NCBI GenBank assembly: GCA_051878455.1
Contig: JBJEKD010000047.1
Coordinates: forward strand, 10,993 to 74,992
DNA length: 64,000 nucleotides
From: Muribaculaceae bacterium
GTDB taxonomy: Bacteria > Bacteroidota > Bacteroidia > Bacteroidales > Muribaculaceae
Direction: 5' to 3'
Each line of letters starts with the position of its first letter. Position 1 is the first letter of the stretch. The translations under genes and the position numbers were made by a program. This document shows, one piece after another, positions 1 to 61,182 of the stretch. Under the pieces are notes generated by a model. It saw only the letters and a program-made list of their open reading frames with translations, ran no database searches and was not told the DNA's origin.

Positions 1-3000
1 GTTGCCAACAAACTGACCATTTACTGAATAAATGCTCACTTGTGCGCCTTCATCAATGCCCGAAACATACAACACGTCGCTTGTAGGCACTGGATATACA
101 CTCACCTCGCCATTCGATTCAACAGGGCTGCTAATGCCCGAAGGCTTGGCGGCACCAAGTTGGTCGAGACATACATACGAAGGCACGCCGCTTTGCGAGG
201 CTGAAACATTCACAGTGAGTTTTACCACACTGCCAAGACCGCTAAGGTCAACCCAACGCCATTGCTTCAACATATAGTGTTCGGCTTCGTCTTCTGAAGT
301 GTAATCAGCAAGATAGTAATCCACCGTGCTTGTGTTATTATCAGCATCGTAGCCTGTAAACGTCACTTTAAAATAATCGCCGGTGGTAAACGCGTTGGTG
401 TAACTATCACCCTCGGTCATGCTTTTTACTGCCCATGCCGTGTTGTTGATATATACGCCCGGAATGGTTATACCATCAATGCTGTTGGTGACATCGATTG
501 TCGGCGTTGAATAATATCCCGAATAAACCACTGCATAAGCGCCGGTGTTGTCGGCTCCACCGCCGGCAGCATTGTTATACTGGTCGTTGAGTATTGTATA
601 ACTGTCATCGGTACTATTGGCATAAGCAAACGATTCCCAATAACTCCACGCCGATATTCTATAATTGTTAAAGGCAAACGAGCCGCTATAGAACGTGTCG
701 CCATTATCAACGTCGCCATTCCACCAAAAGTTTTCAGCGAGGTAATTGTCGTCGAATGTGGCATTAGCCATATCACCAAGCACATACACGGCTGTTTTAG
801 CCTCAACGCTTTGCCCGTCGGCACTGGTCACCGTCAATCGGTATTGACTTGTAACCGTTGGCTTAATCGCAAGTGTCGATTCTGTGCCAACCACTTCGTT
901 CATCTGATTGCGCCACTCATAAGCATACGGTTCATCACCGCCACTCACCGTTGGCTCAATAACGACGTCAGTTCCGGCATCAACAAGGTCGTAGATTGAC
1001 GACAAGTCGAGAGTTAAATCTGCGATGGTGCGTTTTGTGGTGATAACATCCGTAGCCACCACATCCGACTGAATACCAAGCGCACTCACTACCATAAAGT
1101 ATATCTTATAGTCGGTCTGCTGGTCGAGGTCGTCAAACGCTGTTGCCAACTCTGCATCTGCTATGCAATCTTCAGCATCGGTTGCAAGCATAGCCTCAGC
1201 ATCAGGAGCATCTTCATCGGCTTTCTGCAATTTAGCATAAAGTTTGCCGCTCACATTCCATTTGGTTTTCACGCTTATTGCCGCATCGCTCACGCTGCTC
1301 ACCACTGGATAGCCTTCAGCCATAACAGGTTTTTCAAAGGCAATTTCCGAGTATTCATAAGCACCATAAGTCGGGGTGGAAGCATTGCGCTCTGTGCCCT
1401 CAATGTCAACCGTCACCTCGCTCAATGGAGTAGCGCCAAGCATATTGCCAGCCGACATCAGTCGCAAGTCGGTTTCGCTCACAAACTCTGCCTTTTCGAA
1501 GATACTTGCTTCATCGCCCGTAATCTGTGCATAATCGTCAAGCGTGGTTGCCAAGTCTTTCACCAATATGTCTCCGGCAGCATAATAAGCATTGTTATTC
1601 AGCCCTAAAGCCTTCATGTGGGTCTCGCTATTGAGGTATAGCACAGCCGAACCAGTGGCAAAACTTTGCAGAAGGTTGTTCTCAATCTTAAAGTTTGCCA
1701 AGTCGACAGTTGTTCCGCCGACGTAGAAGGCATATCCTGCCACACCGCCAACGCGCACCGTGTTGTGCAGCACTTTCATGTTGCGCGAGTCGGCAGCAAC
1801 ATACAATGCCGAGGTGTAAGCATTAGGCGATGCGGTTACTGAAATCACATTGTTATAAATCAAAGCCGGACGTTCATCGTCGCCTTGAGTGGTGGTGCGT
1901 ATATACAAGCCATTGCTATAATACGCCTGTGTGTTTATAAGCACATTGTTGCGTACAATGAGTTCACCACGGCATCGCGAAATGTCAATACTGCTATAAT
2001 TGGTCTTTTGTGTTTTGGTTGATGTCACCACATTTGCTTCAATAAGTGCATCTATTTCATCGCACACATAAATGCCTTTCGAGCCAGCATCGGTAATGGT
2101 GTTGCGACGCACCACAAGCCCTTGTTCTCTGGTGTACATCACATAACTTGTACCTCCAAGATACAAAGCAATATATCCGCCCTCAAATGCACAATCTTCA
2201 ATGGTCATAAAGTCGTTGTTGCAAGCCTCATCGTTGAGTGCCTCTGCTTTCACCAAACTCATTCCTGACGACCCTGTAATCACTGGGTCGGCTTTCACAA
2301 CACAATTTTTGAGTGTGAAATGGCGGCTTTGATTATAAACGTGCACTGCATAGGGATATGACTGGCTTTGTGGTTCAAAAGTCAAATTTTCAAGCGTTAC
2401 ATACGCTGTGTGAGCCACTGCAAACATACCAAATTTCGTTTCGCCATACGCCGGTTCAGTGTAACCCGAGCCGGTGATTATCACCTTTGTGCGGTCGCCT
2501 GAACGAGAGGCAAATTTTATGCTATGCTCAGCCGAAACGCCATCAACATGGTTAATCATCACGTTTTCGGCATAAGTGCCGTCCTCAATCAAGAATGTCA
2601 CAGCACCCTCAACGCCATTGGCAAGCGCGTCAACAGCATCGTTGATGGTTGCATAATCAGCATCACTCGAGGCACCAATCACAAACTCACCTTTCAAGCC
2701 CTCTGTCACGCTGCGAGTGGCAGCAACAGCATCAATCTTTTCCGCAGCAATGTCTTCTCCGCCTATGGTCAGCGAAGCCAATTGTGCAGTTATGGCATTG
2801 TCCTTTTGCGCATCGGCAGCAACATCCACTGCAAGCCAGAAGTTATATTCGCCATCACTGGTGAGGCTCATTTCTTCGTCAGGTTCAAGAACCACCTCTC
2901 CATCACTTGGCACAGCACTCGCAAGCAGTTTTCCGTTGCCGAAATTCTCTGCCGAAGCGGTATAGAAAAGTTTAGCCATAGTGACATCGCTTTCATCAGT

Positions 3001-6000
3001 GGTGCCATTGAAAGAGAACTTAAATGAATCTACTGTCAAAGCATTTTTGTCGCCTGTCACCTCTAATTTCACCTGCAACAATTCTGCATCAGTTGAGCCT
3101 CGCACAATTCCGCTCTTGGCAGATGCCGCTGCTGACGTTACAGCAGAAACCTCGTAGTTCTCACGCTGATGCAACCCGATTTCAACCTCGAAACCGGCGG
3201 TAAGCGTGGCGTATGATGTGGTGACAAAACGTATAGTTATCGAACCATCGGCAGCCTTCGACACCAAGTCGACCGGTCCTGTTGTTCCACTGAAATAAGA
3301 TGTCGTGCCAAGCAAATTATCGGCATTCACCTCACGTCCGCTATACAGATAGAACTTTCCTGTTCCGGTAGCAAACTGCTTTGAAGTGATGCTCACAATA
3401 GCATCTTCTACGCCCGGAACAAACGTAACAGTTCCATCGAAACTATTCGAGAATTTACCATCCGGACCACCGTCGTCGTAAAGGAGTAGCGAACGTGTCA
3501 CCGTAATCACTCCGTTATCACCATTTGCCAAAATCATTTGGTTCTTCACAGTGAGTTCGCCTTCAGGGTCGCCATCGGCAATGTTAACGGTTTCACCATC
3601 GGCAGTGGTGAGCGAAACAATTTTAGCATCAATTATAGCATCGCTTTCGGCATCGGCAGAAACATCAGCCACCAACCATAAATAGTGGTGTTCGTTTGAC
3701 AGTTCCAACGACCCTTTCACCTGCAAATCGCCTTCGCCCAACTCGGTGACGCTGCCAAATTCTGTGTCAGCCTGGGCAAAATCGGCAACATCTGCCGAAC
3801 TCATCACAGCAATTTTGCTGATGCTTGCCTGAGTGCCTTTCAGGTTCAAAGTCACGCCGGTTAATTCTTTGCTCGTTAACGTGCCTTCAGTGGCAACATC
3901 AACACACAACAACTGCACCGATTCGCTGCCAGGGGTTACGTTGCCGCTGCCCACCTGACTTACCTTAACATCTGTTATGGTCATGTCGTGGTTGATGAAC
4001 GGAGCAACCGTAGCCTTCCATCCTGTTCCGGCATAGTAACTCGTTTCGGTATTAGGGTTGAAGTTGATTGTAAGCGAGCCATCGTCGGCTGTTGAATAGA
4101 GTTTCTTGCCGGGACCTGTTGTCGCCTCGTCGGCAGAACTCAACTTCCATAACAAATTATTGCTGTCGACAGTCGTTCCGCTATACACCTCAAACACCGC
4201 TTTCACGCCGTAACTCGACGACGAATAGTACACATCAAATTCACTGAAATCAATTACAGCCTTTGCACTTGCATCGCCAGGAGTGAATGTTACTATATAA
4301 TCAGCCATCTCATATTCATATTTCGATGGCGATATCGAACTCTTGGTGTCAGTGAAAGTCCATGTATCGTAAATGGTGTGACTGTGAGAGCCCATCACAG
4401 CGTGGCACACGTTATCAACCAAACGGGTGGTGCTCACAGCCTCGGCAGGGGCGTTTTTCACATCGTCGACAGTTACACTACCAAGTGTCAAACCAAGCGT
4501 CTGACCATTGCGGGCATCATCAGCCACATCAACTGTCACGGCAAAATAATTGTTTCCTTCCGAAAGCGGCTTCTCACCTGAAATGCTCACCATATCGCCT
4601 TCAACCGTTGCTTCGCCAAACAATTCTGCTGTGGAGAACGTGGCTGTTTCGCCAAGATAATACACCTTAACGCTCTTAATTGCCGAAGCGCCCTCGGTCA
4701 CAGCAAGGTCAATAGCGCTTACGTTTAACGGATTCAACTGATTGTCGGCAACCACTTTAACCAACACAAACTGCGAGTCTTTATCGCCAGCCGACAGAGT
4801 TGCGTCACTTGCCACACTGCCCGATACCGACTTCAACGTCATGTTGCCGGGCACAAACTGCGAAACCGTTGCCTCCCAGCCATCGGCAGCAACTCCTGTG
4901 ATACTTTTTAGCGTCACCGTGAGCGAACCGTCGTCGGCTGTCGACTTCACAATCTTGCTGCTCTCGCTAAGCAATGTGTACAGCAAATTTGCTTCGTCGG
5001 CTTCACGCCCGTTATATATCTTCAGCACATCGTTATATCCAATCGTTGATGTGTTGAATATAGCAAGTTTTGTGAAATCGATTTTCACTTTACTGCCTTC
5101 TGTGGCAGGCACAAATGTTACTTGACCCTCAAAATTGAGCGTAATCTTGCCGGTTTTGCCGCCGTCGTCATAGAACTCGGCATCGTCGCCAATAGTGAAA
5201 ACAGTGGCATCCGACGGCATCAGTATCACATTGTCAACAATCACGCCATCGCCTTGCACGGCAGATAGAGTACGCTCCTCGCCCAACACTTTCACCACGG
5301 ATATCATTGGCGAAGGAATGGTGCCGCTTGCATCGGGCTGCACATCGGCAACCACAATAAAATCGTTGGATTTTGGTTTCAGAGTGAGGTTCTCAACTTT
5401 CAGTTCATCACCCACAACCGCTGCTGTGGCAAGCAGATTATCATCCGAAACCGAACCTCGGTAGAGGCGCACATTGCTCACCTGTGTGCTTTCGGTGAGA
5501 GCAGCGCAATCAATGCTAAGTTCGTCGAGCGTCAAGGCATTGTTGCCACCATCGGTCACTACGCTGACGCCGAAAATGGTTTGGTTTTTGCTGCCACGAG
5601 TTACATTGGCAAGACCGCTCATCACCGTGGTGCCAACATACTCCATATCTTTTGGCGAAACAGCCATTATAGTGGCTTTCCAACCTGCTCCAGTGCCCGA
5701 CCCTTTACAATGATAAAGAACCGACAACTGTCCCGAGACAGCTGTATAGCTTTGCCCTGCAGTGCTTCCGCTCAGCTCTGCCAAATAGCCTGACTTCACT
5801 TCACTGTTGTGGTAACTTGTAAACTCGGCATCACCATCATAGATATATAGTTTTGCCACTCCACCTAAATCAAGTTCCTCAAAGGTTATCACCAATTGGT
5901 CGCCCTCATTGGCAGGCACAAAACGCACGTAGCCGGCATAGTAGCCCTTGGTGTTGCCGGTGGGGCCACCCATGTCGTAGAAGGTGATTGTCCCATCCAC

Positions 6001-6114
6001 AACCTTTTCCGCAATAAAACCGTCGCTGGTGGGCATTGTGTAGTCGTCGGCATGCACAGCAAACGCAATGCACATAAGTGCAAACGACGTAAACAAATGT
6101 AGAAATCTTTTCAT
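1..6114 (-). CDS. Giant secreted/cell-surface protein, probable T9SS cargo. The 3' end is cut by the window edge and at least 2038 aa are present. Order of parts: signal peptide, 4x [CUB-like + beta-sandwich] modules, right-handed beta-helix, FN3/PKD-like Ig domains, DUF4465-like domain, T9SS C-terminal sorting domain.
   Basis: The ORF is not in the track because no stop codon lies in the window. I reverse-complemented every 60-nt line and translated in the frame of ATG 6114..6112; no stop occurs down to base 1. The N-terminus MKRFLHLFTSFALMCIAFAVHA/DDY is a signal peptide. FYDDGG..VTFVP motifs recur. Beta-helix rungs are present (IVRNNVLIN, LIYNNVISV, VLHNTVRV, KIENNLLQS). A PKD-like stretch reads EPTVSGGDEPYAYEWRN. 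The DUF4465-like stretch reads ATFDDNYLAENFWWNG..FYSGSFAFNNY..SYWESFAYANSTDD..PSYVCLDQLG. The last residues, VSVYPVPTSDVLYVSGIDEGAQVSIYSVNGQFVGN, fit the T9SS CTD pattern. Confidence 0.85.
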   Translation of the reverse strand, partial: MKRFLHLFTSFALMCIAFAVHADDYTMPTSDGFIAEKVVDGTITFYDMGGPTGNTKGYYAGYVRFVPANEGDQLVITFEELDLGGVAKLYIYDGDAEFTSYHNSEVKSGYLAELSGSTAGQSYTAVSGQLSVLYHCKGSGTGAGWKATIMAVSPKDMEYVGTTVMSGLANVTRGSKNQTIFGVSVVTDGGNNALTLDELSIDCAALTESTQVSNVRLYRGSVSDDNLLATAAVVGDELKVENLTLKPKSNDFIVVADVQPDASGTIPSPMISVVKVLGEERTLSAVQGDGVIVDNVILMPSDATVFTIGDDAEFYDDGGKTGKITLNFEGQVTFVPATEGSKVKIDFTKLAIFNTSTIGYNDVLKIYNGREADEANLLYTLLSESSKIVKSTADDGSLTVTLKSITGVAADGWEATVSQFVPGNMTLKSVSGSVASDATLSAGDKDSQFVLVKVVADNQLNPLNVSAIDLAVTEGASAIKSVKVYYLGETATFSTAELFGEATVEGDMVSISGEKPLSEGNNYFAVTVDVADDARNGQTLGLTLGSVTVDDVKNAPAEAVSTTRLVDNVCHAVMGSHSHTIYDTWTFTDTKSSISPSKYEYEMADYIVTFTPGDASAKAVIDFSEFDVYYSSSSYGVKAVFEVYSGTTVDSNNLLWKLSSADEATTGPGKKLYSTADDGSLTINFNPNTETSYYAGTGWKATVAPFINHDMTITDVKVSQVGSGNVTPGSESVQLLCVDVATEGTLTSKELTGVTLNLKGTQASISKIAVMSSADVADFAQADTEFGSVTELGEGDLQVKGSLELSNEHHYLWLVADVSADAESDAIIDAKIVSLTTADGETVNIADGDPEGELTVKNQMILANGDNGVITVTRSLLLYDDGGPDGKFSNSFDGTVTFVPGVEDAIVSITSKQFATGTGKFYLYSGREVNADNLLGTTSYFSGTTGPVDLVSKAADGSITIRFVTTSYATLTAGFEVEIGLHQRENYEVSAVTSAAASAKSGIVRGSTDAELLQVKLEVTGDKNALTVDSFKFSFNGTTDESDVTMAKLFYTASAENFGNGKLLASAVPSDGEVVLEPDEEMSLTSDGEYNFWLAVDVAADAQKDNAITAQLASLTIGGEDIAAEKIDAVAATRSVTEGLKGEFVIGASSDADYATINDAVDALANGVEGAVTFLIEDGTYAENVMINHVDGVSAEHSIKFASRSGDRTKVIITGSGYTEPAYGETKFGMFAVAHTAYVTLENLTFEPQSQSYPYAVHVYNQSRHFTLKNCVVKADPVITGSSGMSLVKAEALNDEACNNDFMTIEDCAFEGGYIALYLGGTSYVMYTREQGLVVRRNTITDAGSKGIYVCDEIDALIEANVVTSTKTQKTNYSSIDISRCRGELIVRNNVLINTQAYYSNGLYIRTTTQGDDERPALIYNNVISVTASPNAYTSALYVAADSRNMKVLHNTVRVGGVAGYAFYVGGTTVDLANFKIENNLLQSFATGSAVLYLNSETHMKALGLNNNAYYAAGDILVKDLATTLDDYAQITGDEASIFEKAEFVSETDLRLMSAGNMLGATPLSEVTVDIEGTERNASTPTYGAYEYSEIAFEKPVMAEGYPVVSSVSDAAISVKTKWNVSGKLYAKLQKADEDAPDAEAMLATDAEDCIADAELATAFDDLDQQTDYKIYFMVVSALGIQSDVVATDVITTKRTIADLTLDLSSIYDLVDAGTDVVIEPTVSGGDEPYAYEWRNQMNEVVGTESTLAIKPTVTSQYRLTVTSADGQSVEAKTAVYVLGDMANATFDDNYLAENFWWNGDVDNGDTFYSGSFAFNNYRISAWSYWESFAYANSTDDSYTILNDQYNNAAGGGADNTGAYAVVYSGYYSTPTIDVTNSIDGITIPGVYINNTAWAVKSMTEGDSYTNAFTTGDYFKVTFTGYDADNNTSTVDYYLADYTSEDEAEHYMLKQWRWVDLSGLGSVVKLTVNVSASQSGVPSYVCLDQLGAAKPSGISSPVESNGEVSVYPVPTSDVLYVSGIDEGAQVSIYSVNGQFVGN
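2650..6048 (-). repeat. Intragenic protein-level tandem repeat: four divergent copies of a ~265-290 aa bi-domain module (CUB-like jelly-roll, then a beta-sandwich).
   Basis: From the hand translation, the first half of each module reads TFYDMGGPTGN..YVRFVPANEG (nt ~5990-5890), EFYDDGGKTGK..VTFVPATEG (~5180-5100), YIVTFTPGDAS..GWKATVAPF (~4290-3970) and LLYDDGGPDGK..VTFVPGVED (~3480-3400). The second half of each module ends in DFIVVADV, NYFAVTVDV, HYLWLVADV and YNFWLAVDV respectively. The copies are too diverged to form a DNA-level repeat. Confidence 0.6.
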
Positions 6115-6397
6115 CTTTCTGATAGTTAGTAAGTTATTAAAAAAATCACATAAACCAAACCTTATGGCTTTTTCTATGCACATTCAAAATTTTTTAAGAA
6201 CTCACTTTTGCCCAATTCGAGACAGCCATATGCAATTACATAACACCAACCTAATCAACGCTTAGGTGTGAGCAAAGGCACAATAGGCCAACCAATATCT
6301 TCTTTTTCTACTCTGGAAGAAAAACGAGAGATAAAGAAAAAAAAGAAATTGCAGAATAGCAGCCCCAAACCTCGAGGGCAAAAGCAGTTCCTAATGA

Positions 6398-6595
6398 TTT
6401 GGCAGGTCTTCTGACTTTGCTCGGCCTGTGTGATTCGGTTACCTTCCCGTTGCCTTTACAGACAGACAACAGTGGCATTTCCATGCCGAATCAGGCTTAA
6501 TGTTGATGAGCATTACAGCAGCGGGTCTGTTCGGGATTCTCACCCGATTCCCTTTTCAGCCAACAGACGATGGTTCCATTCTGTCAGCCACCAAA
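6398..6595 (-). promoter_or_regulatory. Cobalamin (B12/cobamide) riboswitch aptamer.
   Basis: The minus strand reads uuugguggcugacagaauggaaccaucgucuguuggcugaaaagggaaucgggugagaaucccgaacagacccgcugcuguaaug...aaaugccacuguugucugucuguaaaggcaacgggaagguaa...agucagaagaccugccaaa. This contains the conserved core (AGGGAA..GGUG.GAAUCC....CCGCUGCUGUAA), the GCCACUG B12 box, GGGAAGG, and AGAAGACCUGCC. A closing P1 is formed by uuugg/ccaaa and cugac/gucag. Confidence 0.85.
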
Positions 6596-6613
6596 CATTT
6601 CCATTTCTGCGAA

Positions 6614-6621
6614 CAAAGATA
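6614..6621 (-). promoter_or_regulatory. Bacteroidota sigma-A type -7 box (TAtcTTTG) driving the riboswitch leader.
   Basis: The reverse complement of caaagata is tatctttg, matching TAnnTTTG. It lies ~18 nt upstream of the first aptamer base and downstream of the stop of the preceding gene. Confidence 0.5.
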
Positions 6622-21409: not shown

Positions 21410-22060
21410 ATGACTGAAACATTCAATTTCCTGCGCGATTTACGCAGCAACAACCGCCGTGATTGGTTTGCCGAACACAAGGCTCAATTCGACATGTTGC
21501 GAAGCCGTTGGCTTGAACAGTTGCAACAATTAATCACTATTATGAGCCAATACGACGACTCACTGCACAATTTGAAAGCCACCGATTGCGCCTACCGCAT
21601 ATATCGCGACATCCGTTTTTCTGACGATAAGACGCCCTACAAGACCTACTTTAGCGCAGTAATCGGCACAAACGGACGAAAATGCACCAAGGCATGCTAT
21701 TATGTTCACATCGAACCCAACGCATCGGGGCTGTATGCCGGGCTGTGGTGCCCCACGCCCGAAGTGCTGCGCCGGACACGCTCGCTTATCGATGCCGACG
21801 GGAACGAACTGGTTGAACTCATCAACAATCCCGAAACAGCCTCGCGCTTTAGTTTCACCCCGTTTCAGTCGCTCAAAAAGGCTCCCGTAGGTTTTAATCC
21901 CAACCATCAATTCATCGACCTGCTACGAGCCAAAGACTACACTTTCAGCCACCCTTGCCCCGACGATTATTTCACATGCGGCAACTGGATGGAGCACGCC
22001 GCCAACGATTATTTTCACATAAAACCTGTGCTCGATTTTTTCAATTATGTGTTTGACTAA
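21410..22060 (+). CDS. DUF2461 (TIGR02453) family protein.
   Basis: 216 aa with FLRDLRSNNRRDWFAEHK and YRIYRDIRFSDDKTPYKTYF signature stretches. Confidence 0.75.
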   Translation: MTETFNFLRDLRSNNRRDWFAEHKAQFDMLRSRWLEQLQQLITIMSQYDDSLHNLKATDCAYRIYRDIRFSDDKTPYKTYFSAVIGTNGRKCTKACYYVHIEPNASGLYAGLWCPTPEVLRRTRSLIDADGNELVELINNPETASRFSFTPFQSLKKAPVGFNPNHQFIDLLRAKDYTFSHPCPDDYFTCGNWMEHAANDYFHIKPVLDFFNYVFD

Positions 22061-22168
22061 CGTAATTACTTGACAGCAAAGCATTTACGCAAATTATAGC
22101 ACAAATTGTCAGCAAATGTGCCAAAGGTTAATCTATTTAAAAAAGATTACCGACTACAAATAATTATG

Positions 22169-22176
22169 TAAATTTG
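22169..22176 (+). promoter_or_regulatory. -7 box TAaaTTTG for the oxidoreductase operon.
   Basis: taaatttg lies 29 nt upstream of ATG 22205. Confidence 0.45.
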
Positions 22177-22204
22177 TACACTATTAAAATAAAATTGTAT
22201 AGTT

Positions 22205-22435
22205 ATGGCTAAAGTAAGAGGTGCAATCAAAGTGAATGAGGAAAGATGCAAAGGATGCGGCATCTGCGTTGCCGCATGCCCATTTAATGTGATTGCCCTG
22301 CAAAAAATAGAAGTTAACAATAAAGGCTATCACTACGTCTTTATGGAAAACGCAGAATTATGCACAGGATGCACCAGTTGCGCCACCGTCTGTCCCGACT
22401 CCTGCATCGAAGTATATCGAACAAAAGAAGATTAG
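22205..22435 (+). CDS. 2-oxoacid:ferredoxin oxidoreductase delta subunit (4Fe-4S dicluster, kor/vor type).
   Basis: 76 aa with two Cys clusters, CKGCGICVAACP and CTGCTSCATVCP. It is the first gene of a four-gene operon. Confidence 0.8.
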   Translation: MAKVRGAIKVNEERCKGCGICVAACPFNVIALQKIEVNNKGYHYVFMENAELCTGCTSCATVCPDSCIEVYRTKED

Positions 22436-25144: not shown

Positions 25145-25792
25145 ATGGAACTGAAAACGCGTATTGTTACCACCACATTACAGATGATGATGCAAATGGG
25201 AGTGTCGTCGATGACGATGGATGCCATAGCGCGGTCGTGCGGCATATCAAAGCGCACGCTCTACGAGCAATTCCCCGACAAAATCACTCTCTTGTCAGAA
25301 GCGTTCAAATACGATTTCAAAGCAAAACAAGCCCGTTTAGAAAAAATCTTCAACAATTCGTCGAACCGAATCGAAGCCCTGCTTAGCGTTTATAGCGAGA
25401 TTCGCAAGCAAGTGAGTCACACATCAATAGCACTTGTAAGCGACATCCGCCGCCTCTACCCGTCGCTCTACAGCGAATACGAGGCCGTGCAAAATCAAAA
25501 CAATGCCAGCCTGGTGGAAGTGCTGAAGCAAGGTCGCGACGAAGGGCTTGTGCGCAACGATGCCAACATCGGAATCACCGTGCAACTGTTCACCATGATT
25601 GTGCGAAGCACCGAATTATCGAACCTGGCATATCGCAACGACCTTCCGCTGGTGAAAGTGCTCGACGAGTTATTCATCAACTTTATGCGTTCGATTGCAA
25701 CAATACGAGGCATTGAAATGATTGACGAATTCATAACAAGCATCAACGACAATAATAACATCATAATAAATAAAAACAAAGACAAGCAATGA
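25145..25792 (+). CDS. TetR/AcrR family transcriptional regulator.
   Basis: 215 aa with the N-terminal HTH region GVSSMTMDAIARSCGISKRTLYEQFPDK. Its stop overlaps the start of the next gene (ATGA). Confidence 0.85.
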   Translation: MELKTRIVTTTLQMMMQMGVSSMTMDAIARSCGISKRTLYEQFPDKITLLSEAFKYDFKAKQARLEKIFNNSSNRIEALLSVYSEIRKQVSHTSIALVSDIRRLYPSLYSEYEAVQNQNNASLVEVLKQGRDEGLVRNDANIGITVQLFTMIVRSTELSNLAYRNDLPLVKVLDELFINFMRSIATIRGIEMIDEFITSINDNNNIIINKNKDKQ

Positions 25793-27222
25793 ACTACAAA
25801 TTCAGCATTCTGCTTTTTGGCGTGTTCGCCCTTGCATCGTCATCGCTCAAGGCACAAACCACAGCCGTGAGCGACACCATGATGCTCTCGGTGGACGACT
25901 GCGTGAAAATTGCGCTTAACGAAAACCCGACAATCAAGGTTGCCGACATGGAAATAACCCGCGTCGACTATTCGAAGAAAGAAACTATTGCGCAGTTATT
26001 CCCAAATGTGTCATTCTCTGCAGCCTACAGCCGCACACTGGCCAAGCAAACCATGTATATGAACAACGGCGGTCAAACTATGGCTATCAAAATGGGTCGC
26101 GACAACACTCACAACGTGGGATTTAACGCATCGATGCCAATAATATCGGTGTCGCTGTGGAGGTCGATTAAACTCTCCGACAACCAAATTCTGCAAAACA
26201 TCGAAGCATCACGCACTTCGCGACTCTCTCTCATCAACCAAGTGAAGAACGCCTATTATGCGCTTCTGCTTGCCTACGACTCTCACAAAGTGCTGGTTGA
26301 AAACCACGCTACCGCTAAGGTGAATGCCGACATCTACGAGAAGAAATTCAAAAACGGAACCGCAAGCGAATTCGATGTGCTCCGTTCGAGCGTGGCTGTG
26401 AAAAACATCGAGCCTTCGATAATCGAAGCCGAAAACTCAATTCGCAGCCTCGAACTGCAACTGAAGGTGCTCATGGGAATGGATGTGGCTCAAGGCATCA
26501 AGCCAAACACATCGCTTTCCGACTATAAGGACACAATGTATGCCGACGTGATGGCTATTAGCAACGACCTCAGCCTGAACTCCGATTTGCGTCAACTCGA
26601 CTTGCAAACCGATTTCCTCAAGAAATCAATCGACGTGCAAAAGGCTTCGTGGCTGCCCACCCTGTCTGCCTCAATTGGCTACAACTGGTATTCGATGAGC
26701 GACGGAAGTCCGTTCAAGAACTTTGCATGGAGTCCTAACTCAAGTGTAGGGCTGTCGCTTTCGTGGACATTGTTCAACGGCGGAGGACGATACTACAAGC
26801 AAAAGCAAGCCGAACTTTCTTACAAAGAAATGGCTTGGCAACGCGACAACCTTAGCCGCACGCTCGAGATGCAACGCCAAATTCAACTCGACAACATTCA
26901 AAAGAATGTAAAACAGATTGAAACCTGCACCGCAAGCGTTGATCAAGCAGTTAAAGCCAATCAAATTCAAGAAAAGAGTTTCAAGATTGGTGCTTCAACC
27001 TATCTCGACCTTCGCGATTCGGAAGACGCTCTCATGAGTTCAAAACTGGCTTACTATCAAGCCATCTACAACTATCTTGTGGCAAAGAGCGACCTCGAAC
27101 TGCTTCTTGGAAATGCCGATGTGCAATATCCAACCGACACAAAGGATGCCGCCATACGCACGAAAACAATACTCGACGAAAAGTATTCGAAAGGCGAAAC
27201 CAACACATCTGACAATAAATAA
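25789..27222 (+). CDS. TolC family outer-membrane efflux protein.
   Basis: 477 aa with a signal peptide and two repeated coiled-coil/beta-barrel halves. It sits directly upstream of the MFP and RND genes. Confidence 0.85.
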   Translation: MNYKFSILLFGVFALASSSLKAQTTAVSDTMMLSVDDCVKIALNENPTIKVADMEITRVDYSKKETIAQLFPNVSFSAAYSRTLAKQTMYMNNGGQTMAIKMGRDNTHNVGFNASMPIISVSLWRSIKLSDNQILQNIEASRTSRLSLINQVKNAYYALLLAYDSHKVLVENHATAKVNADIYEKKFKNGTASEFDVLRSSVAVKNIEPSIIEAENSIRSLELQLKVLMGMDVAQGIKPNTSLSDYKDTMYADVMAISNDLSLNSDLRQLDLQTDFLKKSIDVQKASWLPTLSASIGYNWYSMSDGSPFKNFAWSPNSSVGLSLSWTLFNGGGRYYKQKQAELSYKEMAWQRDNLSRTLEMQRQIQLDNIQKNVKQIETCTASVDQAVKANQIQEKSFKIGASTYLDLRDSEDALMSSKLAYYQAIYNYLVAKSDLELLLGNADVQYPTDTKDAAIRTKTILDEKYSKGETNTSDNK

Positions 27223-27252
27223 AAAAACTGTATATCTCTACATCATCAAACT

Positions 27253-28305
27253 ATGAATTCAATCAAGCAAATTCTCAGCATGGCTTGCGCATCACTCTTG
27301 CTTGTGTCATGCACCGGAAAAGAAGATTCTGCAAATAAGCAGGTCGACGAAAAGCCTCTTGTTAAAATCCAAAAAGTTTACGAACAAGATGTTCCTCAAA
27401 TCGCTGAATATACAGCAACAGTGGAAGGCTTCAAAACCAACAACATCTCCACCTCAACACCTAACCGCATCAAGCAAATTCTGGTGGAAGTGGGTTCGCC
27501 AGTGCGTGCCGGTCAGGCACTCGTTATTCTCGACGACGTGAACATTGAACAACAAAAAATTCGCCTTGCCAACCAAAAGGTGAACCTCGACCGCGCTAAA
27601 GAATTGCTCTACATTGGTGGCGGAACACAACAGACCGTCGACCAATTGCAAGCCGAATACGACGCTGCAATGCGTGCTTACAACAATGCAAAAGAAAACA
27701 CCGTGCTCACCGCCCCTATGAGCGGCGTTGTTACTGAAAAGAACAACGACAACGGCGACTATACCAGTGGCTCACCTATCCTTGTGATTGAGCAAATGCA
27801 ACCAGTGAAAGTGATTGTAAGCGTTAACGAAAGCGACTTCCCTCGCATCAAGAAGGGTCAGAAAGTGAATGTTAAAGTTGATGTTTACGGCGACGAACTC
27901 TTCACCGGCACAGTTTATCTGATTCATCCGTCAATCGATTCTACAACTCGCACATTCCAAGTTGAAGTTACACTGCCCAACACCGACAACCGTGTGCGCT
28001 CGGGCATGTTTGCTCGCGTGCTCTTCGACTTTGGAGCAAAGAAAAATGTGGTTGTGCCCGACATGGCTATTGTTAAGCAAACCGGCAGCGGCAACCGCTA
28101 CGTTTACGTTTATAACGACGGCAAAGTGTCGTTCAACAAAGTTGAACTTGGTCAACGCATTGGCGACAGTTACGAACTTATTTCAGGCGTGCCATCGGGC
28201 AGCGACGTTGTAATCAGCGGTCAGTCACGTTTGAGCGACGGCCTTGAAGTAGGCATCACCGGCGACCAAGCCAAAGCACCGGCTAAAACCGACTCGGTGA
28301 AATAA
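27253..28305 (+). CDS. Efflux RND periplasmic adaptor (membrane fusion protein), lipoprotein.
   Basis: 350 aa with lipobox LLVSC, a barrel-sandwich/hairpin pattern (GQALVILDD...LTAPMSGVV), and operon context. Confidence 0.85.
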   Translation: MNSIKQILSMACASLLLVSCTGKEDSANKQVDEKPLVKIQKVYEQDVPQIAEYTATVEGFKTNNISTSTPNRIKQILVEVGSPVRAGQALVILDDVNIEQQKIRLANQKVNLDRAKELLYIGGGTQQTVDQLQAEYDAAMRAYNNAKENTVLTAPMSGVVTEKNNDNGDYTSGSPILVIEQMQPVKVIVSVNESDFPRIKKGQKVNVKVDVYGDELFTGTVYLIHPSIDSTTRTFQVEVTLPNTDNRVRSGMFARVLFDFGAKKNVVVPDMAIVKQTGSGNRYVYVYNDGKVSFNKVELGQRIGDSYELISGVPSGSDVVISGQSRLSDGLEVGITGDQAKAPAKTDSVK

Positions 28306-28409
28306 CACGCCCCCGGAAAAAAAGAGACGGCTGACAGCCTTTCTCACAACTAATCTCTCTTCACACAAGTACAATTTAGTTTAAGAAACAATAGAACAAA
28401 CCACACACA

Positions 28410-31400
28410 ATGAGTTTATATGCAAGTGCGGTAAAACGGCCGGTAATGACCAGTCTCTGCTTTGTGGCAGTGATTATCCTCGGTTTGTTTTCCTATACAA
28501 AACTACCAATCGACTTGTATCCGGACATCGACACGAACACCATTATGGTGATGACCTACTACACCGGAGCAAGTGCCAGCGACATTGAGCAAAACGTGTC
28601 GCGCCCGCTTGAAAACACCCTCAACTCTGTTGAGCACCTCAAGCACATCACATCAACCTCACGCGAAAACGTGTCGGTAATCACTCTTGAGTTTGAATAC
28701 GGCTACGACATCGATGTGCTCACCAACGATGTGCGCGACAAACTCGACATGGTGTCGAATAGTTTGCCTGACGACGCTAACACTCCGTTTATCTTCAAGT
28801 TCAGCACCGATATGATTCCTATCCTGCTGCTCTCTGTGGAAGCCGACGAAAGTACGCCAGGTCTGTATAAAATCCTCGACGACCTTGTTGCCAACCCATT
28901 GGCACGCGTCGACGGGGTGGGTTCGGTGTCGGTTAGCGGTGCACCCGAACGCGAGATTCACGTTTATGTCGACCCTATCCGTCTTGAGGCTTACAACCTC
29001 TCGGTTGAAGGCATTGCTTCAATCATCGGAGCCGAAAACAAAAACATTCCGGGCGGTTCGTTCGACATCGGTAACGAAACATATTCGCTGCGTGTGCAAG
29101 GCGAGTTTTCCGATGCAAAGCAGATGGAAGACATCGTTGTAGGCACATCGGGCGGTGCAAGCATCTATCTGCGCGACGTGGCTCGCGTCGACGACTCGTT
29201 GCAGGAACGCGCCCAAAAGACCTTCAACAACAACATTCAAGGTGGTATGATTGTGGTGCAAAAGCAATCAGGTGCCAACTCGGTGCAAATCTCAAACAAG
29301 GTGAAGAAGATGCTCCCGAGCATACAAAAAACCTTGCCTACCGACGTTAAACTTGGCGTGATTGTCGACACCAGCGATAACATCATCAACACCATCAACT
29401 CACTCACCGAAACTGTGCTCTATGCCCTCTTGTTTGTGGTGATTGTGGTGTTTGCATTCTTGGGACGCTGGCGCGCAACCATCATCATCGTCATCACCAT
29501 CCCTATTTCGCTTATCGCTTCGTTTATCTACCTGTTTGCAACCGGCAACTCGCTCAACATCATCTCACTGTCGTCACTCTCAATCTCAATCGGTATGGTG
29601 GTCGACGACGCCATTGTGGTGCTTGAAAACGTAACCACCCACATCGAGCGTGGTGCCGACCCGAAACAGGCTGCCGTTCACGGCACCAACGAGGTGGCTA
29701 TCTCGGTTATCGCCTCTACATTGACGCTTATCGCCGTGTTCTTCCCGCTCACTCTTGTCACCGGTATGACAGGTGTGCTGTTCAAGCAATTAGGTTGGAT
29801 GGTTTGTATCATGATGATTATTTCAACCACCTGCGCACTTTCGCTCACACCTATGCTTTGCAGCCAGTTGCTTCGCTTGCGCGGTGCCGAAAAGAAAGGC
29901 TTGTTGAAGAAGATGTTCGTTCCTATCGAAAAAGGCCTTGACGCCCTCGATACTGGCTACGCACGCCTGCTCAACATTGTGGTGCGCCACAAGACTACAA
30001 CCATTTTGGTGTGCTTGGGCATCTTTATCGGCTCAATGGGATTGATGAAATTCATCGGCAGCGAGTTCATTCCGGTGAGCGACAACAGCCGTCTTGGTGT
30101 AACCCTTGAATTGCCAATAGGCACACGCGTTGAGCGTGCCGAGGAAATCAGCCACCGACTCTACGATGAATGGATTACAAAGTATCCTGAAATTAAGATT
30201 ATGAACTTCACCGTAGGTCAAGCCGGCGACAACAACACCTTCGCCTCGCTGCAAAACAACGGCTCGCACATCATCTCCATGAACATTCGTCTGTGCAACC
30301 CAGGCGAACGCGAGCGCGGCATCGTGGAAATTGCAGCCCTCATGCGTGAAGACCTCAAGCATTACCCCGAATTCAAAAAGACTATCGTGAACGTAGGCGG
30401 TAGCCGTGGCGGTAGCATGAGCGGTCAGTCGACCCTCGACTACGAAATTTATGGCTACGACTTCACTGCCACCGACAGCGTGGCTCAACGCGTGAAGCGT
30501 CTGTTGCTCTCTTGCGAAGGTGCATCCGACATCACCATAAGCCGTAGCGACTATCAGCCGGAATATCAAGTCGATTTCGACCGCGAGAAACTGGCACTCT
30601 ACGGACTTAACCTGTCGACGGCAGCCACCTATCTGCGCAACCGCATCAACGGTAGCACAGCAAGTTACTATCGCGAAGATGGCGAAGAATACGACATCAA
30701 AGTGATGTACGCTCCCGAATTCCGTACTACTCTCGAGGACATTGAAAACATTCTCATCTACAATAGTCAAGGTAAAGGCGTGCGCATCAAGGACGTCGGC
30801 ACCGTGGTTGAACGCTTCAACCCTCCAACAATCGAACGTAAGGACCGCGAACGCATAATCACAGTGCAAGCCACTGTCGACGGCGTGCCAATGAGCCAGA
30901 TTGTTGAAGAAATGCAGCCTAAACTCGACCAACTCGACATGCCAACAGGTATCACCGTTGAACTCTCGGGTAGTTACGAGGACCAACAGGATTCATTCTC
31001 CGACCTCGCCACTTTGGGCATTATCATCATCATTCTTGTGTACATCGTTATGGCAGCACAGTTTGAATCGCTCACCTACCCTGCAATCATCATGACCTCG
31101 TTGCTCTTTGCCATCTCGGGTATTGTGCTCATCCTTTGGGCAACAAACACCAACCTCAACATCATGTCGATGATTGGTGCCATCATGCTTATCGGTATTG
31201 TGGTGAAGAACGGTATTGTGCTCATCGACTACATCACACTTAACCGCGAACGCGGCATGAGCATACGCACGTCGGTGGTTGATGGTGGACGCTCGCGTCT
31301 GCGCCCAATCATTATGACCGCACTCACCACCATCCTCGGTATGGTGCCTATGGCAGTTAGCCAAGGCGAAGGTGCCGAAATGTGGCGTCCTATGGGTATT

Positions 31401-31529
31401 GCCGTTATCGGCGGTCTTACGTTCTCAACTCTGCTCACCTTGCTCTTCGTGCCTACACTCTATTGCATCTTTGCTTACAACGGCGTGAAACGCGAACGCA
31501 AGAAACTGCGCAAAGGCAACAATGATTAA
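28410..31529 (+). CDS. Efflux RND transporter permease (AcrB/HAE1-like).
   Basis: 1039 aa with a 12-TM layout and two large periplasmic loops. It carries the conserved SISIGMVVDDAIVVLEN and LIGIVVKNGIVLIDY motifs. Confidence 0.9.
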   Translation: MSLYASAVKRPVMTSLCFVAVIILGLFSYTKLPIDLYPDIDTNTIMVMTYYTGASASDIEQNVSRPLENTLNSVEHLKHITSTSRENVSVITLEFEYGYDIDVLTNDVRDKLDMVSNSLPDDANTPFIFKFSTDMIPILLLSVEADESTPGLYKILDDLVANPLARVDGVGSVSVSGAPEREIHVYVDPIRLEAYNLSVEGIASIIGAENKNIPGGSFDIGNETYSLRVQGEFSDAKQMEDIVVGTSGGASIYLRDVARVDDSLQERAQKTFNNNIQGGMIVVQKQSGANSVQISNKVKKMLPSIQKTLPTDVKLGVIVDTSDNIINTINSLTETVLYALLFVVIVVFAFLGRWRATIIIVITIPISLIASFIYLFATGNSLNIISLSSLSISIGMVVDDAIVVLENVTTHIERGADPKQAAVHGTNEVAISVIASTLTLIAVFFPLTLVTGMTGVLFKQLGWMVCIMMIISTTCALSLTPMLCSQLLRLRGAEKKGLLKKMFVPIEKGLDALDTGYARLLNIVVRHKTTTILVCLGIFIGSMGLMKFIGSEFIPVSDNSRLGVTLELPIGTRVERAEEISHRLYDEWITKYPEIKIMNFTVGQAGDNNTFASLQNNGSHIISMNIRLCNPGERERGIVEIAALMREDLKHYPEFKKTIVNVGGSRGGSMSGQSTLDYEIYGYDFTATDSVAQRVKRLLLSCEGASDITISRSDYQPEYQVDFDREKLALYGLNLSTAATYLRNRINGSTASYYREDGEEYDIKVMYAPEFRTTLEDIENILIYNSQGKGVRIKDVGTVVERFNPPTIERKDRERIITVQATVDGVPMSQIVEEMQPKLDQLDMPTGITVELSGSYEDQQDSFSDLATLGIIIIILVYIVMAAQFESLTYPAIIMTSLLFAISGIVLILWATNTNLNIMSMIGAIMLIGIVVKNGIVLIDYITLNRERGMSIRTSVVDGGRSRLRPIIMTALTTILGMVPMAVSQGEGAEMWRPMGIAVIGGLTFSTLLTLLFVPTLYCIFAYNGVKRERKKLRKGNND

Positions 31530-32878: not shown

Positions 32879-32951
32879 AGCCACAAGCGGGACTCGAACC
32901 CGCGACCGTCTCGTTACGAATGAGATACTCTACCGACTGAGCTATTGTGGC
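32879..32951 (-). tRNA. tRNA-Thr (anticodon CGT).
   Basis: The minus strand reads GCCACAATAGCTCAGTCGGTAGAGTATCTCATTCGTAACGAGACGGTCGCGGGTTCGAGTCCCGCTTGTGGCT. It has a 7-bp acceptor stem, a GCTC/GAGT D-arm, the anticodon loop TTCGTAA, and a GCGGG-TTCGAGT-CCCGC T-arm. No CCA is encoded. Confidence 0.9.
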
Positions 32952-59766: not shown

Positions 59767-61182
59767 ATGGCAATACTACGCAACATAATCATATCGTTGC
59801 TGGCAACGCTGCTGGCATTCTGCACAAGTTGCATCGAGGACGGCTTCACCACCTCGAGCAGCGACTTGCTTGAATTTTCGTGCGACACTCTGAGTTTCGA
59901 CACCATTTTCACCGAGCAAGGCACACCCACAAAGCAATTTGTGGTGTATAACCGTCACAAAAAGCAAATCAACATTTCGTCAATATCGCTTTCAAGCAAC
60001 ACTGCGCACCGTTTTTATCTCAACGTCGACGGCATGAAAGGCGAAGTGTTCCACGACGTAAGCATTCGCGGCGAGGACAGCATATTTGTTTTTGTTGAAA
60101 GCAAACTCGACGCCAATGGGCAGGACGCGCCGCTGCTGGCTGAGGACTGCATCAACTTCGTGACAAACGGCATGACTCAGAAAGTGGTGCTGCGTGCTTG
60201 GGGTCAGGATGTTGAACGCCTCACCCGTCCGCAATTCACCGCCGACGCATGCCTCACAGCCAACAAGCCGTATGTGATTTTCGACACGCTTTATGTGGCA
60301 CCGGGCGTCACCCTCACCATCGAACCCGGCACAACCCTCTATTTCCACGACAAGGCAGCCATGCGCATCGACGGCACACTGAAGGCTTGCGGCACTCAAC
60401 CCAAGCCCATACACCTGCGTGGCGACCGCACCGACTATCTGTTTGAAGGCGCAAACTACGACATCATGTCGGGGCAATGGGGCTGTGTGGAATTTGGTGT
60501 CGACAGCCGTGGCAACGAAATGCAATATGTGTTGATGCGCGGTTCGAGCAACGGCATCATCGTTTCGGCGGCTTCAGCCGATGCTAAAGCCCTGCATCTG
60601 TTTAACTCGGTGCTTCACAATAGTTCTAACAGCGTGATGGTGGCAAACAACGCTTGGATTGAAGCCGAAGGCTGCGAGTTCAGCGACGCTGCCTACGACG
60701 TGGTGAAAATGCAAGGCGGCACCTACCGCTTTGTCAACTGCACCTTTGCCAATTATTACCTGTTTGGATTGAAGTTCTCTCCTATAATCACCGTTGTGCT
60801 CACCGACGACGACGGCAACGCACTTCAGCCATCGGTTCACCTCTACAACTGCATAATTAGCGGCAACGTGCGCGAGTTCAACGAAAACGATTTCTCCGGC
60901 ACCGACGTGATGCTGCGTAATTGTATGCTTCAAAGCAATGGTAGCGACGACGACAATTTCATCAACTGCAAATGGGACGGCGATGCCCAATTCCGCATCG
61001 AGCGCAACAAATACATCTTCGATTACCGTCTTGGCAACGAGAGCAGCGCCATTGCCGCCGGCGATGTTAGTCTTTGCCCCGAGCACGCCCTCACCGACCG
61101 ATATGGGCAACAGCGAATCTACAACGGAAGCATCGACATTGGTGCCTATCGTTGGGTTCCTGTCGACTACAACGCAAAATAA
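59767..61182 (+). CDS. Lipoprotein with an N-terminal Ig-like domain and a predicted right-handed beta-helix; function unknown.
   Basis: 471 aa with lipobox LLAFCTSC. The Ig-like stretch is FDTIFTEQGTPTKQFVVYNRHKKQINI. Repeated short rungs carry N/C-rich turns (LFNSVLHNSSNS, RFVNCTFAN, LYNCIISGN, LRNCMLQSN). Confidence 0.55.
   Translation: MAILRNIIISLLATLLAFCTSCIEDGFTTSSSDLLEFSCDTLSFDTIFTEQGTPTKQFVVYNRHKKQINISSISLSSNTAHRFYLNVDGMKGEVFHDVSIRGEDSIFVFVESKLDANGQDAPLLAEDCINFVTNGMTQKVVLRAWGQDVERLTRPQFTADACLTANKPYVIFDTLYVAPGVTLTIEPGTTLYFHDKAAMRIDGTLKACGTQPKPIHLRGDRTDYLFEGANYDIMSGQWGCVEFGVDSRGNEMQYVLMRGSSNGIIVSAASADAKALHLFNSVLHNSSNSVMVANNAWIEAEGCEFSDAAYDVVKMQGGTYRFVNCTFANYYLFGLKFSPIITVVLTDDDGNALQPSVHLYNCIISGNVREFNENDFSGTDVMLRNCMLQSNGSDDDNFINCKWDGDAQFRIERNKYIFDYRLGNESSAIAAGDVSLCPEHALTDRYGQQRIYNGSIDIGAYRWVPVDYNAK

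Follow-up and report, generated by a model that had tools for sequence, protein, structure and literature searches.

The window analysed here is a 64-kb stretch of DNA from a Muribaculaceae MAG, representing a gut member of the Bacteroidales. At its left end the minus strand carries a Bacteroidota-type promoter box, a complete cobalamin riboswitch, a leader and the ORF of a giant protein. As a sequence-only reading of the stretch had reported, the ORF stays open from ATG 6114 to base 1, with no stop in 2038 codons (positions 1–6114, residues 1–2038), and is truncated by the window edge. A full-length protein, P0001, named by NCBI 'DUF4465 domain-containing protein [Muribaculaceae bacterium]', is 100% identical to the window ORF and has 2075 residues. 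The DNA beyond base 1 can be judged from syntenic relatives: only the final 37 codons of the gene lie there, followed by two convergent genes of the other strand (one unannotated or DnaJ, the other grpE), and no btu genes are present. The giant gene stands alone, its downstream neighbours in syntenic relatives being convergent, and probably forms a transcription unit by itself. Within the window, our ORF scan took in the non-nested ORFs of at least 290 residues, bar two, together with five shorter ones, likely genes being chosen by judgement. The earlier statement that the 64 kb holds no btuB, btuG or btuFCD was sustained for this set, since no BtuB-, BtuG-, BtuF- or BtuCD-like protein was found among the larger ORFs scanned. 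The scanned ORFs also contained no T9SS machinery domains (PorK/L/M/N, Sov, PorU/V).

The riboswitch aptamer occupies positions 6384–6610 of the minus strand. Rfam cmscan matches positions 6610–6384 to RF00174 over the whole model, positions 1–189 of 189; the score is 88 bits (E = 2.2e-20), where the gathering score is 31.5. The motifs from which a complete core had been read on the minus strand, AGGGAAUCGGGUGAGAAUCCCGAACAGACCCGCUGCUGUAA, GCCACUG, GGGAAGG and AGAAGACCUGCC, are all found in the sequence, and P1 can be read as AAUGUUUGG pairing with CCAAAUCAUU through nine pairs and one bulge. The window aptamer contains the B12 box GCCACUG, the core junction GGGAA..GGUG..AAUCC and the closing helix P1, and across 18 diverse homologous leaders the columns of these three elements vary little or not at all.

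The TAtcTTTG box that had been placed just upstream of the riboswitch is indeed there: TATCTTTG at positions 6614–6621 of the minus strand is an exact match to the Bacteroidota-type -7 promoter box TAnnTTTG. The motif alone shows no enrichment across the window (50 occurrences versus 41 expected). Its position is conserved in relatives: 57 of 74 related loci have a TAnnTTTG box no more than 70 nt upstream of the riboswitch, mostly at 5–16 nt, against a background of 2.7% of random 80-nt windows. On the other side of the aptamer lies a 269-nt leader (positions 6115–6383, minus strand), which is the presumed expression platform; the median leader length in 70 related loci is 215 nt. The leader has a more stable fold than shuffled controls (z = -4.07). 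We found no canonical intrinsic terminator in it, and such a terminator occurs in only 4 of 70 related leaders. The minus strand from the aptamer to the ATG holds no second TAnnTTTG, and no ORF of at least 60 residues lies fully inside the leader on that strand. A hairpin, GCCCU...GGGGC, immediately 3' of the aptamer and an A-rich start region are kept in seven relatives.

The linkage between aptamer and gene extends well beyond this genome. Each of the 77 related loci whose upstream sequence was long enough, drawn from Muribaculaceae, Sodaliphilus, Dysgonomonas, Paludibacter and Prevotella at protein identities of 31–85%, has a riboswitch upstream of the giant gene on the same strand, and Rfam confirmed it in 10 of them. 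Dysgonomonas sp. BGC7, Prevotella aurantiaca JCM 15754 and Muribaculaceae Isolate-013 are among the carriers in culture. In several relatives the giant gene sits within btuB–btuG–btuH or btuF operons. The order in L045 is riboswitch, TonB-dependent receptor, DUF5074 (BtuG-like), BtuH homologue and giant gene; L080 has riboswitch, BtuH homologue and giant gene; and in L036 and L048 a Peripla_BP_2 (BtuF-like) gene stands between riboswitch and giant gene. In L040 and L021 the giant gene is adjoined by a short PKD–DUF4465–CTD paralogue with its own riboswitch. The BtuH homologues (7biz match, E = 3e-42) that neighbour the giant gene in L045, L040 and L080 are separate genes.

The giant protein comprises, in order, a Sec signal, four CUB-like/CBM-like pairs, a right-handed beta-helix, two Ig-like domains, a DUF4465 domain and a T9SS type-A sorting domain. 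The N-terminus (residues 1–22, positions 6049–6114, minus strand) is probably an SPI-type Sec signal peptide; in the translation it reads, by eye, MKRFLHLFTSFALMCIAFAVHA followed by DD, with an A-x-A cleavage motif (AVHA, then DD) and without a lipobox.

The DUF4465-like domain that had been noticed near the C-terminus is a clear member of its family. It is predicted to form a corrinoid-binding beta-jellyroll of the BtuJ type at approximately residues 1790–1990 (positions 145–747, minus strand). PF14717 matches residues 1822–1986 over profile positions 2–176 of 176 with 150.8 bits against a gathering score of 25 (E = 6.6e-44). The domain matches PDB entry 9hmu, the D5EK51–B12 complex, at E = 7.5e-36; with the family profile, BtuJ1 (9fct, 1.7e-23) and BtuJ2 (9i2l, 1.3e-16) are matched as well. 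By these matches, three crystal structures with bound B12 are homologues of the domain. In BtuJ1, B12 is contacted by Tyr245 in the HI loop and Tyr146 in the DE-loop helix (PMC13398666). Tyr245 corresponds to Y1980 here, which is invariant in a 22-sequence alignment; Tyr146 corresponds to W1894, at a position where the family consensus is Tyr, although Trp is found in the solved homologue 4jqr too. By homology to 9hmu, 9fct and 9i2l, the domain is predicted to bind corrinoids with high affinity. The sequence-only reading had placed BtuH's B12-binding domain, with expressed uncertainty, in the DUF4465 family. This was mistaken, as it is BtuJ1 and BtuJ2 that have the DUF4465 fold (PMC13398666; bioRxiv 10.1101/2025.07.01.662609). 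A BtuH-type B12 domain in the giant protein was rejected, 7biz being unmatched both by the protein and by the family profile.

The first part of the sorting domain, residues 2006–2038, lies at positions 1–99 of the minus strand. Within the window Por_Secre_tail matches these first 33 residues only, at 15 bits and under the cut-off, because the window edge cuts the domain. When the uncut tail of P0001 is taken instead, TIGR04183 reaches 49.8 bits (cut-off 23; E = 2.5e-13), bearing out the T9SS sorting domain proposed earlier, and the giant protein is predicted to be secreted by this system.

Residues 23–1128 (positions 2731–6048, minus strand) form four tandem A–B modules, delineated from Pfam, profile–profile comparison, AF2 and Foldseek. 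Module A is CUB-like, and module B is similar to the CBM-like domain at the N-terminus of Bacteroidales GH33 sialidases. Copies match one another with profile–profile probabilities of 97–99.8% (A–A) and 98–99.8% (B–B), and Pfam finds on the giant protein CUB, BNR_assoc_N in four stretches and Beta_helix. With an AF2 model of module 2 (pLDDT 94), Foldseek matches module A to CUB domains of neuropilin, PCPE-1 and cubilin, and module B to the N-terminal domains of sialidases, BTSA and NanH among them. The modules are alike in fold to cubilin CUB (3kq4), BTSA (4bbw) and NanH (7qy9) at 10–16% identity. Cubilin, the intrinsic factor–B12 receptor, is one CUB match among many, at rank 41, and the likeness of the modules to cubilin and to sialidases is a resemblance, not membership.

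The modules are followed by a right-handed parallel beta-helix at approximately residues 1129–1590 (positions 1345–2730, minus strand; Pfam Beta_helix and AF2, pLDDT 93), which contains invariant residues and terminates in a conserved cap, D..G..R....T.GAYE. Among solved folds, the GH136 lacto-N-biosidases LnbX and TnX come closest, with TM scores of 0.43 (query-normalised) and 0.49 (target-normalised) at 14% identity for 5gqc (LnbX), and of 0.38 and 0.43 at 11% identity for 7v6m. The family profile gave no sequence-level match to GH136, and in the model the likeness appears at fold level only. Two Ig-like or PKD-like beta-sandwich domains, delimited by AF2 secondary structure, occupy approximately residues 1591–1789 (positions 748–1344, minus strand), and positions 1702–1792 of the family profile match phage Ig-like decoration proteins.

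We consider it likely that this locus encodes a corrinoid-capture protein that is repressed by B12 and delivered by the T9SS, expressed from a Bacteroidota promoter through a cobalamin riboswitch. The sequence-only reading had proposed a protein of this kind, corrinoid-capturing or corrinoid-responsive, and the capture proposal now has computational support from (i) the riboswitch linkage in 77 of 77 loci, (ii) the DUF4465 homology, (iii) the sorting domain and (iv) the btu operons of relatives. Against it stand the Trp at the Tyr146 position, the lack of btuB or btuG among the window ORFs scanned, the scarcity of canonical terminators in the leaders, the basal position that a C-terminal tether would give the B12 domain, and the many family tails that T9SS models do not recognise. 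When corrinoid is plentiful in the cell, the liganded aptamer would switch the giant gene off, by a route other than a classical terminator; when corrinoid is scarce, the giant protein would be produced. Sec export would be followed by passage across the outer membrane through the T9SS by means of the C-terminal sorting domain, after which the protein would either stay tethered to the surface through its C-terminus or be released.

Proteins with a type-A sorting domain usually become covalently attached to the cell surface, and such a C-terminal tether would put the DUF4465 domain at the base of the protein, not at its tip. The well-scoring type-A domain of the window protein (49.8 bits) argues against release, free or on vesicles, after cleavage of the sorting domain, by which the protein would scavenge corrinoids or withhold B12 from competitors. 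We regard such release as unlikely, even though the C-terminal tails of the family are highly variable, many being unrecognised by T9SS models and a few ending in dockerin, which argues against a single fixed anchoring mode. In its favour as well, two preprints describe BtuJ1 as an extracellular reservoir and tie B12-binding proteins to vesicles in B. thetaiotaomicron (bioRxiv 10.1101/2025.07.01.662609; 10.1101/2025.07.31.667871). The DUF4465 domain, adjoining the anchor, would bind corrinoids tightly, as do BtuJ1, BtuJ2 and D5EK51, and bound corrinoid would be handed to BtuG/BtuB-type importers encoded elsewhere in the genome.

C-terminal tethering would leave approximately 85% of the giant protein without an explained role. 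The approximately 1800 residues that would project outward, with their four pairs of CUB and lectin-like modules, the beta-helix and the two Ig-like domains, would most likely bind glycans or glycoproteins, and we propose that they would thereby position or load the corrinoid trap. Since CUB, sialidase-CBM-like, beta-helix and Ig-like modules make up so much of the protein, it could instead act chiefly as an adhesin that binds glycans or an enzyme that degrades them, with B12 as a regulatory cue or DUF4465 as a sensor, and 17 of 109 full-length representatives of 50%-identity clusters are huge T9SS proteins with CUB and BNR_assoc_N modules and without DUF4465. However, DUF4465 is kept in 92 of the 109, which share the N-terminal scaffold, and occurs twice in some; the B12-contacting Tyr of the HI loop is conserved, the DE-loop position being Trp here; the giant gene lies inside btuB/G/H/F operons in several species; and the GH136 likeness is at fold level only (TM 0.43–0.49, 11–14% identity), so that a primarily adhesive or enzymatic role seems quite improbable. 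It is scarcely credible that the riboswitch serves a short transcript of its own, or that an internal promoter in the leader drives the giant gene, because the leader, long and without recognised regulatory structure as it is, has no terminator, no second TAnnTTTG box and no complete minus-strand ORF of at least 60 residues, and aptamer and gene are paired in every one of the 77 loci, across several Bacteroidales genera.

The corrinoid-capture protein proposed here can also be set beside other known systems. Like T9SS type-A cargo (TIGR04183/PF18962), which includes large adhesins and enzymes, it has a Sec signal in front of a modular, beta-rich body and ends in a sorting domain of approximately 70 residues. 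In the literature searched we found no description of T9SS cargo with cobalamin riboswitch control or a B12-binding domain; the arrangement of a riboswitch with a giant T9SS B12-domain protein, kept in all assessable relatives, was likewise not found there.

BtuH2 (BT1956) is a surface-exposed, riboswitch-controlled B12 binder whose C-terminal B12 domain lies behind PKD/Ig-like domains (PMC8941943, PMC13616437). The giant protein resembles BtuH2 (7biz) in having a riboswitch and a predicted C-terminal B12 domain behind PKD/Ig-like domains, but the B12-binding fold of BtuH2 is unrelated to DUF4465. The two would also differ in geometry, since the N-terminal anchor of BtuH2 places its B12 domain at the tip, whereas a C-terminal anchor would place that of the giant protein at the base.

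The closest relationship is to BtuJ1 (BT1491) and BtuJ2 (BT1957) of Bacteroides thetaiotaomicron and D5EK51 of Coraliomargarita akajimensis, which have the homologous DUF4465 (PF14717) beta-jellyroll. The BtuJ kind and the giant protein have in common the HI-loop Tyr, a cobalamin riboswitch and an extracellular site of action, the last being predicted here. BtuJ1 and BtuJ2 are lipoproteins of approximately 250–300 residues that carry a lipoprotein export signal and whose genes lie in btu operons (PMC13616437). In contrast, the giant protein, at 2075 residues, has a plain signal peptide, a T9SS sorting domain and a stand-alone gene, and approximately 1800 residues of unrelated modules precede its B12 domain. 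Thus, as far as its sequence indicates, the giant protein shares the BtuJ domain and is not of the BtuJ surface-lipoprotein type.

The minus-strand reading frame that begins at ATG 6114 stays open for 2038 codons to base 1 with zero stops, as the sequence-only reading had claimed, and its product is 100% identical to P0001, a 2075-residue protein from a Muribaculaceae MAG that is named just "DUF4465 domain-containing protein". The cobalamin riboswitch proposed upstream of this giant gene was recovered by Rfam as an RF00174 match at 6610-6384 on the minus strand, spanning the entire model length (88 bits versus a gathering threshold of 31.5, E 2.2e-20). Every riboswitch motif quoted earlier was found in the sequence, and the element is the sole riboswitch detected by Rfam within the 64-kb window.

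Two syntenic homologues (81% and 58% identical) supplied the neighbourhood beyond base 1, and both share one gene order. Genes for ArgRS and a Bax1-I protein lie upstream on the same strand, together with an esterase gene in the closer (81%) relative, as in the window. Downstream is a convergent opposite-strand pair, consisting of grpE and, ahead of it, either a DnaJ gene or a 391-residue gene without annotation. From this arrangement, the giant gene is predicted to be monocistronic. According to the same homologues, the sequence left of base 1 holds the 37 remaining codons of the giant gene, and no btu genes were found there. The scan of the larger window ORFs turned up housekeeping or carbohydrate genes and nothing btu-like, in line with the absence of btu genes claimed from the sequence. 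The window also contains a tRNA gene at 32879-32951 (-) (RF00005, 66 bits), a complete, ordinary-looking RND efflux operon at 25789-31529 (+) encoding an outer-membrane factor, a membrane-fusion protein and an AcrB-type pump, and a 471-residue ORF at 59767-61182 (+) without a Pfam family at E up to 1e-6.

By eye, the N-terminus of the giant protein resembles a plain Sec signal, with AVHA followed by DD and without a lipobox. Pfam assigned DUF4465 to residues 1822-1986 of the window ORF (E 6.6e-44), bearing out the domain call made earlier. It also detected BNR_assoc_N in four stretches, one CUB domain, a beta-helix and the initial 33 residues of Por_Secre_tail. BLAST of the protein against itself revealed no internal repeats; profile-profile comparison was needed to resolve residues 23-1128 into four tandem pairs of a CUB-like module (A) and a module like the carbohydrate-binding N-terminal domain of sialidases (B), with probabilities of 97-99.8% for A-A and 98-99.8% for B-B matches. 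In the AlphaFold model of pair 2 (pLDDT 94), A adopts a CUB fold that matches neuropilin, PCPE-1 and cubilin (rank 41), and B corresponds to the carbohydrate-binding-like domain found at the N-terminus of Bacteroidales GH33 sialidases (e.g., BTSA and NanH). The possibility that the CUB-like modules contain a calcium site was considered and dropped, as the conserved acidic motifs are, by eye, out of register with the canonical CUB calcium ligands. Residues 1129-1800 were modeled (pLDDT 93) as a right-handed beta-helix followed by two Ig-like sandwiches, after which come DUF4465 and the sorting domain. The best solved folds for the beta-helix are the GH136 lacto-N-biosidases LnbX and TnX (TM 0.43/0.49 for LnbX, 11-14% identity), a modeled likeness that may serve as a lead at the fold level only. 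The NCBIfam search of the ORF as cut by the window gave no match, and the T9SS type-A sorting domain (TIGR04183) was recognized only with the complete tail of P0001, in which the last 88 residues score 49.8 bits versus a cut-off of 23.

DUF4465 (PF14717) is the fold of the Bacteroides thetaiotaomicron surface lipoproteins BtuJ1 (BT1491) and BtuJ2 (BT1957), both tight B12 binders, and B12 binding has been shown for eight distant members of the family (PMC13398666; bioRxiv 10.1101/2025.07.01.662609; PMC13616437). The earlier, tentative assignment of DUF4465 to BtuH was wrong: BtuH has another fold, and in some relatives its homologues are encoded by distinct genes next to the giant one. The window domain matches the crystal structure of D5EK51 with B12 (9hmu) at E 7.5e-36. 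BtuJ1 and BtuJ2 were missed by a single-sequence search of the PDB and were found with the family profile (9fct, 1.7e-23, and 9i2l, 1.3e-16, respectively). The HI-loop tyrosine of BtuJ1, Y245, corresponds to Y1980 here and is invariant in a 22-sequence alignment. The DE-helix tyrosine, Y146, is replaced by W1894; Y is the family consensus at this site, and 4jqr, a solved homologue, likewise carries W.

A HMMER search with residues 24-1128 against 1.84 billion cluster representatives returned 207 matches at E up to 1e-30. DUF4465 is present in 92 of the 109 newly returned representatives of at least 1900 residues, where it lies toward the C-terminus and is followed by a median of 154 residues; it occurs twice in three scaffold relatives (P0192, P0204 and P0206). 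Among 18 of the most distant matches, 12 carry DUF4465 and 15 carry Por_Secre_tail; one bears a DUF5074 (BtuG-like) domain according to Pfam. A phmmer search of the scaffold relatives with a BtuG-like protein gave no match. Other huge T9SS proteins without DUF4465, such as P0215 (6052 aa) and P0255 (5432 aa), also contain the CUB and BNR_assoc_N modules, repeated in as many as 22 matched stretches. The C-terminal tails vary, comprising recognized type-A domains, divergent tails that the models miss and, in five full-length proteins (P0009, P0010, P0014, P0047 and P0084), a type I dockerin end instead of a T9SS sorting domain. Many family tails, e.g., ...VNIVVTRYTDGSTTSVKKIF, are unrecognized by Pfam and NCBIfam.

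The scan for relatives covered one genome per species and found them in 148 of 185,579 species genomes, from which we retrieved 80 loci (31-85% identity) labeled Muribaculaceae, Sodaliphilus, Sangeribacter, Dysgonomonas, Paludibacter, Prevotella and others. Using a covariance model built from 18 leaders of related loci, the aptamer was detected upstream of the giant gene and on its strand in 77 loci, ten of which were confirmed by Rfam itself; the other three have less than 100 nt of upstream sequence. In L046, L043 and L026, 0.8-1.4 kb without a long ORF separate the riboswitch from the estimated start of the gene downstream, a gap that could reflect an assembly problem, an extended N-terminus or an error in placing the start. 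The Dysgonomonas sp. BGC7 locus, L038, has three more cobalamin riboswitches within 16 kb of the giant homologue, at 21896-22212 (-), 25337-25595 (-) and 25837-26020 (+), one of which precedes nrdD (anaerobic ribonucleotide reductase) and another a carboxyltransferase and biotin carboxylase pair.

A promoter box, TATCTTTG, is located at 6621-6614 on the minus strand. A sigma-70 promoter scan, which is not designed for Bacteroidota promoters, gave no match; the TAnnTTTG box was assessed instead. This box is present within 70 nt 5' of the aptamer, mostly at 5-16 nt, in 57 of 74 loci versus 2.7% of random windows, and no second box was found in the window leader. The median distance from aptamer to ATG is 215 nt across the related loci. 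Scans found no canonical terminator in the window leader and one in just 4 of 70 leaders of related loci, so transcription attenuation via a classical terminator is unsupported. The window leader is predicted to fold unusually stably (z -4.07), with a long-range helix in 6115-6383 (-) that pairs CUGCUUUUGCCC, directly behind the aptamer, with GGGCAAAAGUGAG, some 170 nt farther downstream, and with a U-rich tract paired to the A-rich start-codon region. Sequestration of this A-rich start region or Rho-dependent termination are possible ways in which the switch might act.

The giant gene stands alone in most loci, but not in all. The riboswitch is followed by a TonB-dependent receptor, a DUF5074 (BtuG-like) protein, a BtuH homologue and the giant gene in L045, by a BtuH homologue and the giant gene in L080, and by a periplasmic binding protein (BtuF-like) and the giant gene in L036 and L048. 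Mini paralogues, each behind its own cobalamin riboswitch, adjoin the giant gene at L040:8196-9587 (463 residues) and L021:9920-11332 (470 residues). A full reading of the L040 product shows a signal peptide, then a PKD-like domain, DUF4465 and an Ig-like region, with a T9SS-sorting-like tail at the end. Next to its gene come those for a BtuH homologue, a TonB-dependent receptor and a BtuG-like (DUF5074) protein, in that order. These mini paralogues suggest that a BtuJ-type binder with a sorting-domain tail recurs in these lineages and that the giant form may be an elaboration of it. The BtuH homologues (L045:3990-5183, L040:9699-10919 and L080:8937-10004; 355-406 residues) lack a Pfam match for their main body and were recognized by similarity to PDB 7biz (E 3e-42) and 8blw_B (E 3e-55). 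The L045 homologue has a C-terminal dockerin recognized by Pfam, with which the dockerin-like end of the L040 homologue aligns; a dockerin end is unusual for a Bacteroidales B12 binder.

Taken together, we consider it likely that the giant protein captures corrinoids in the manner of BtuJ, is repressed by B12 and is delivered by the T9SS. If anchored by its C-terminus, it would carry the B12 domain at its base, with 1800 residues of lectin-like and beta-helix modules extending outward. This topology is opposite to that of the BtuH2 lipoprotein and suggests either a separate binding function for the distal array or release of the protein. The most probable of the three rivals, albeit improbable, is that the protein is set free as a scavenger. 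That it serves mainly as an adhesin or enzyme is, in our view, less probable still; the lectin-like modules and the GH136-like fold would suit it, and the retention of DUF4465 in 92 of 109 scaffold relatives speaks against it. With the aptamer found in 77 loci, an uncoupling of riboswitch and giant gene is scarcely credible. As a speculation of low probability, the outward array of four CUB plus sialidase-CBM-like pairs and a GH136-like beta-helix might not be a mere spacer: it could be a B12-starvation-induced device for capturing glycosylated B12 carriers or B12-rich particles, from which the DUF4465 domain at the base would remove the corrinoid and pass it on to BtuG/BtuB. Targets could include host haptocorrin, intrinsic factor, mucus or other microbes. 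If true, the protein would act as a "fishing rod" displayed via the T9SS, with glycan recognition put to the service of vitamin piracy.

Gut communities are shaped by competition for B12, and the present findings are relevant to researchers on both B12 acquisition and the T9SS. The individual parts (cobalamin riboswitch, DUF4465 as a B12 binder and T9SS sorting domain) are already known. Their combination, with T9SS delivery instead of lipidation, a giant modular body and a strictly conserved stand-alone riboswitch unit, was not found in the literature searched, the coverage of which was incomplete; that literature yielded no relevant paper on the cobalamin/B12 riboswitch together with the T9SS and nothing usable on the T9SS in Muribaculaceae. 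If confirmed, the T9SS would join the routes of vitamin acquisition, a widespread giant protein annotated only as "DUF4465 domain-containing" would gain a function, and the binding target of the distal 1800 residues would become a testable question. Cultured carriers among the retrieved loci (Dysgonomonas sp. BGC7, Prevotella aurantiaca JCM 15754, Muribaculaceae Isolate-013 and Porphyromonadaceae bacterium H1) make such experiments feasible. The known Bacteroidota machinery (BtuB, G, H and J) was worked out in Bacteroides and is made of surface lipoproteins, whereas a different route may export the BtuJ-type binder in another large part of the Bacteroidales: there it has a T9SS sorting signal and is in most cases joined to a very large array of lectin-like and beta-helix modules, which would be strictly co-regulated with it.
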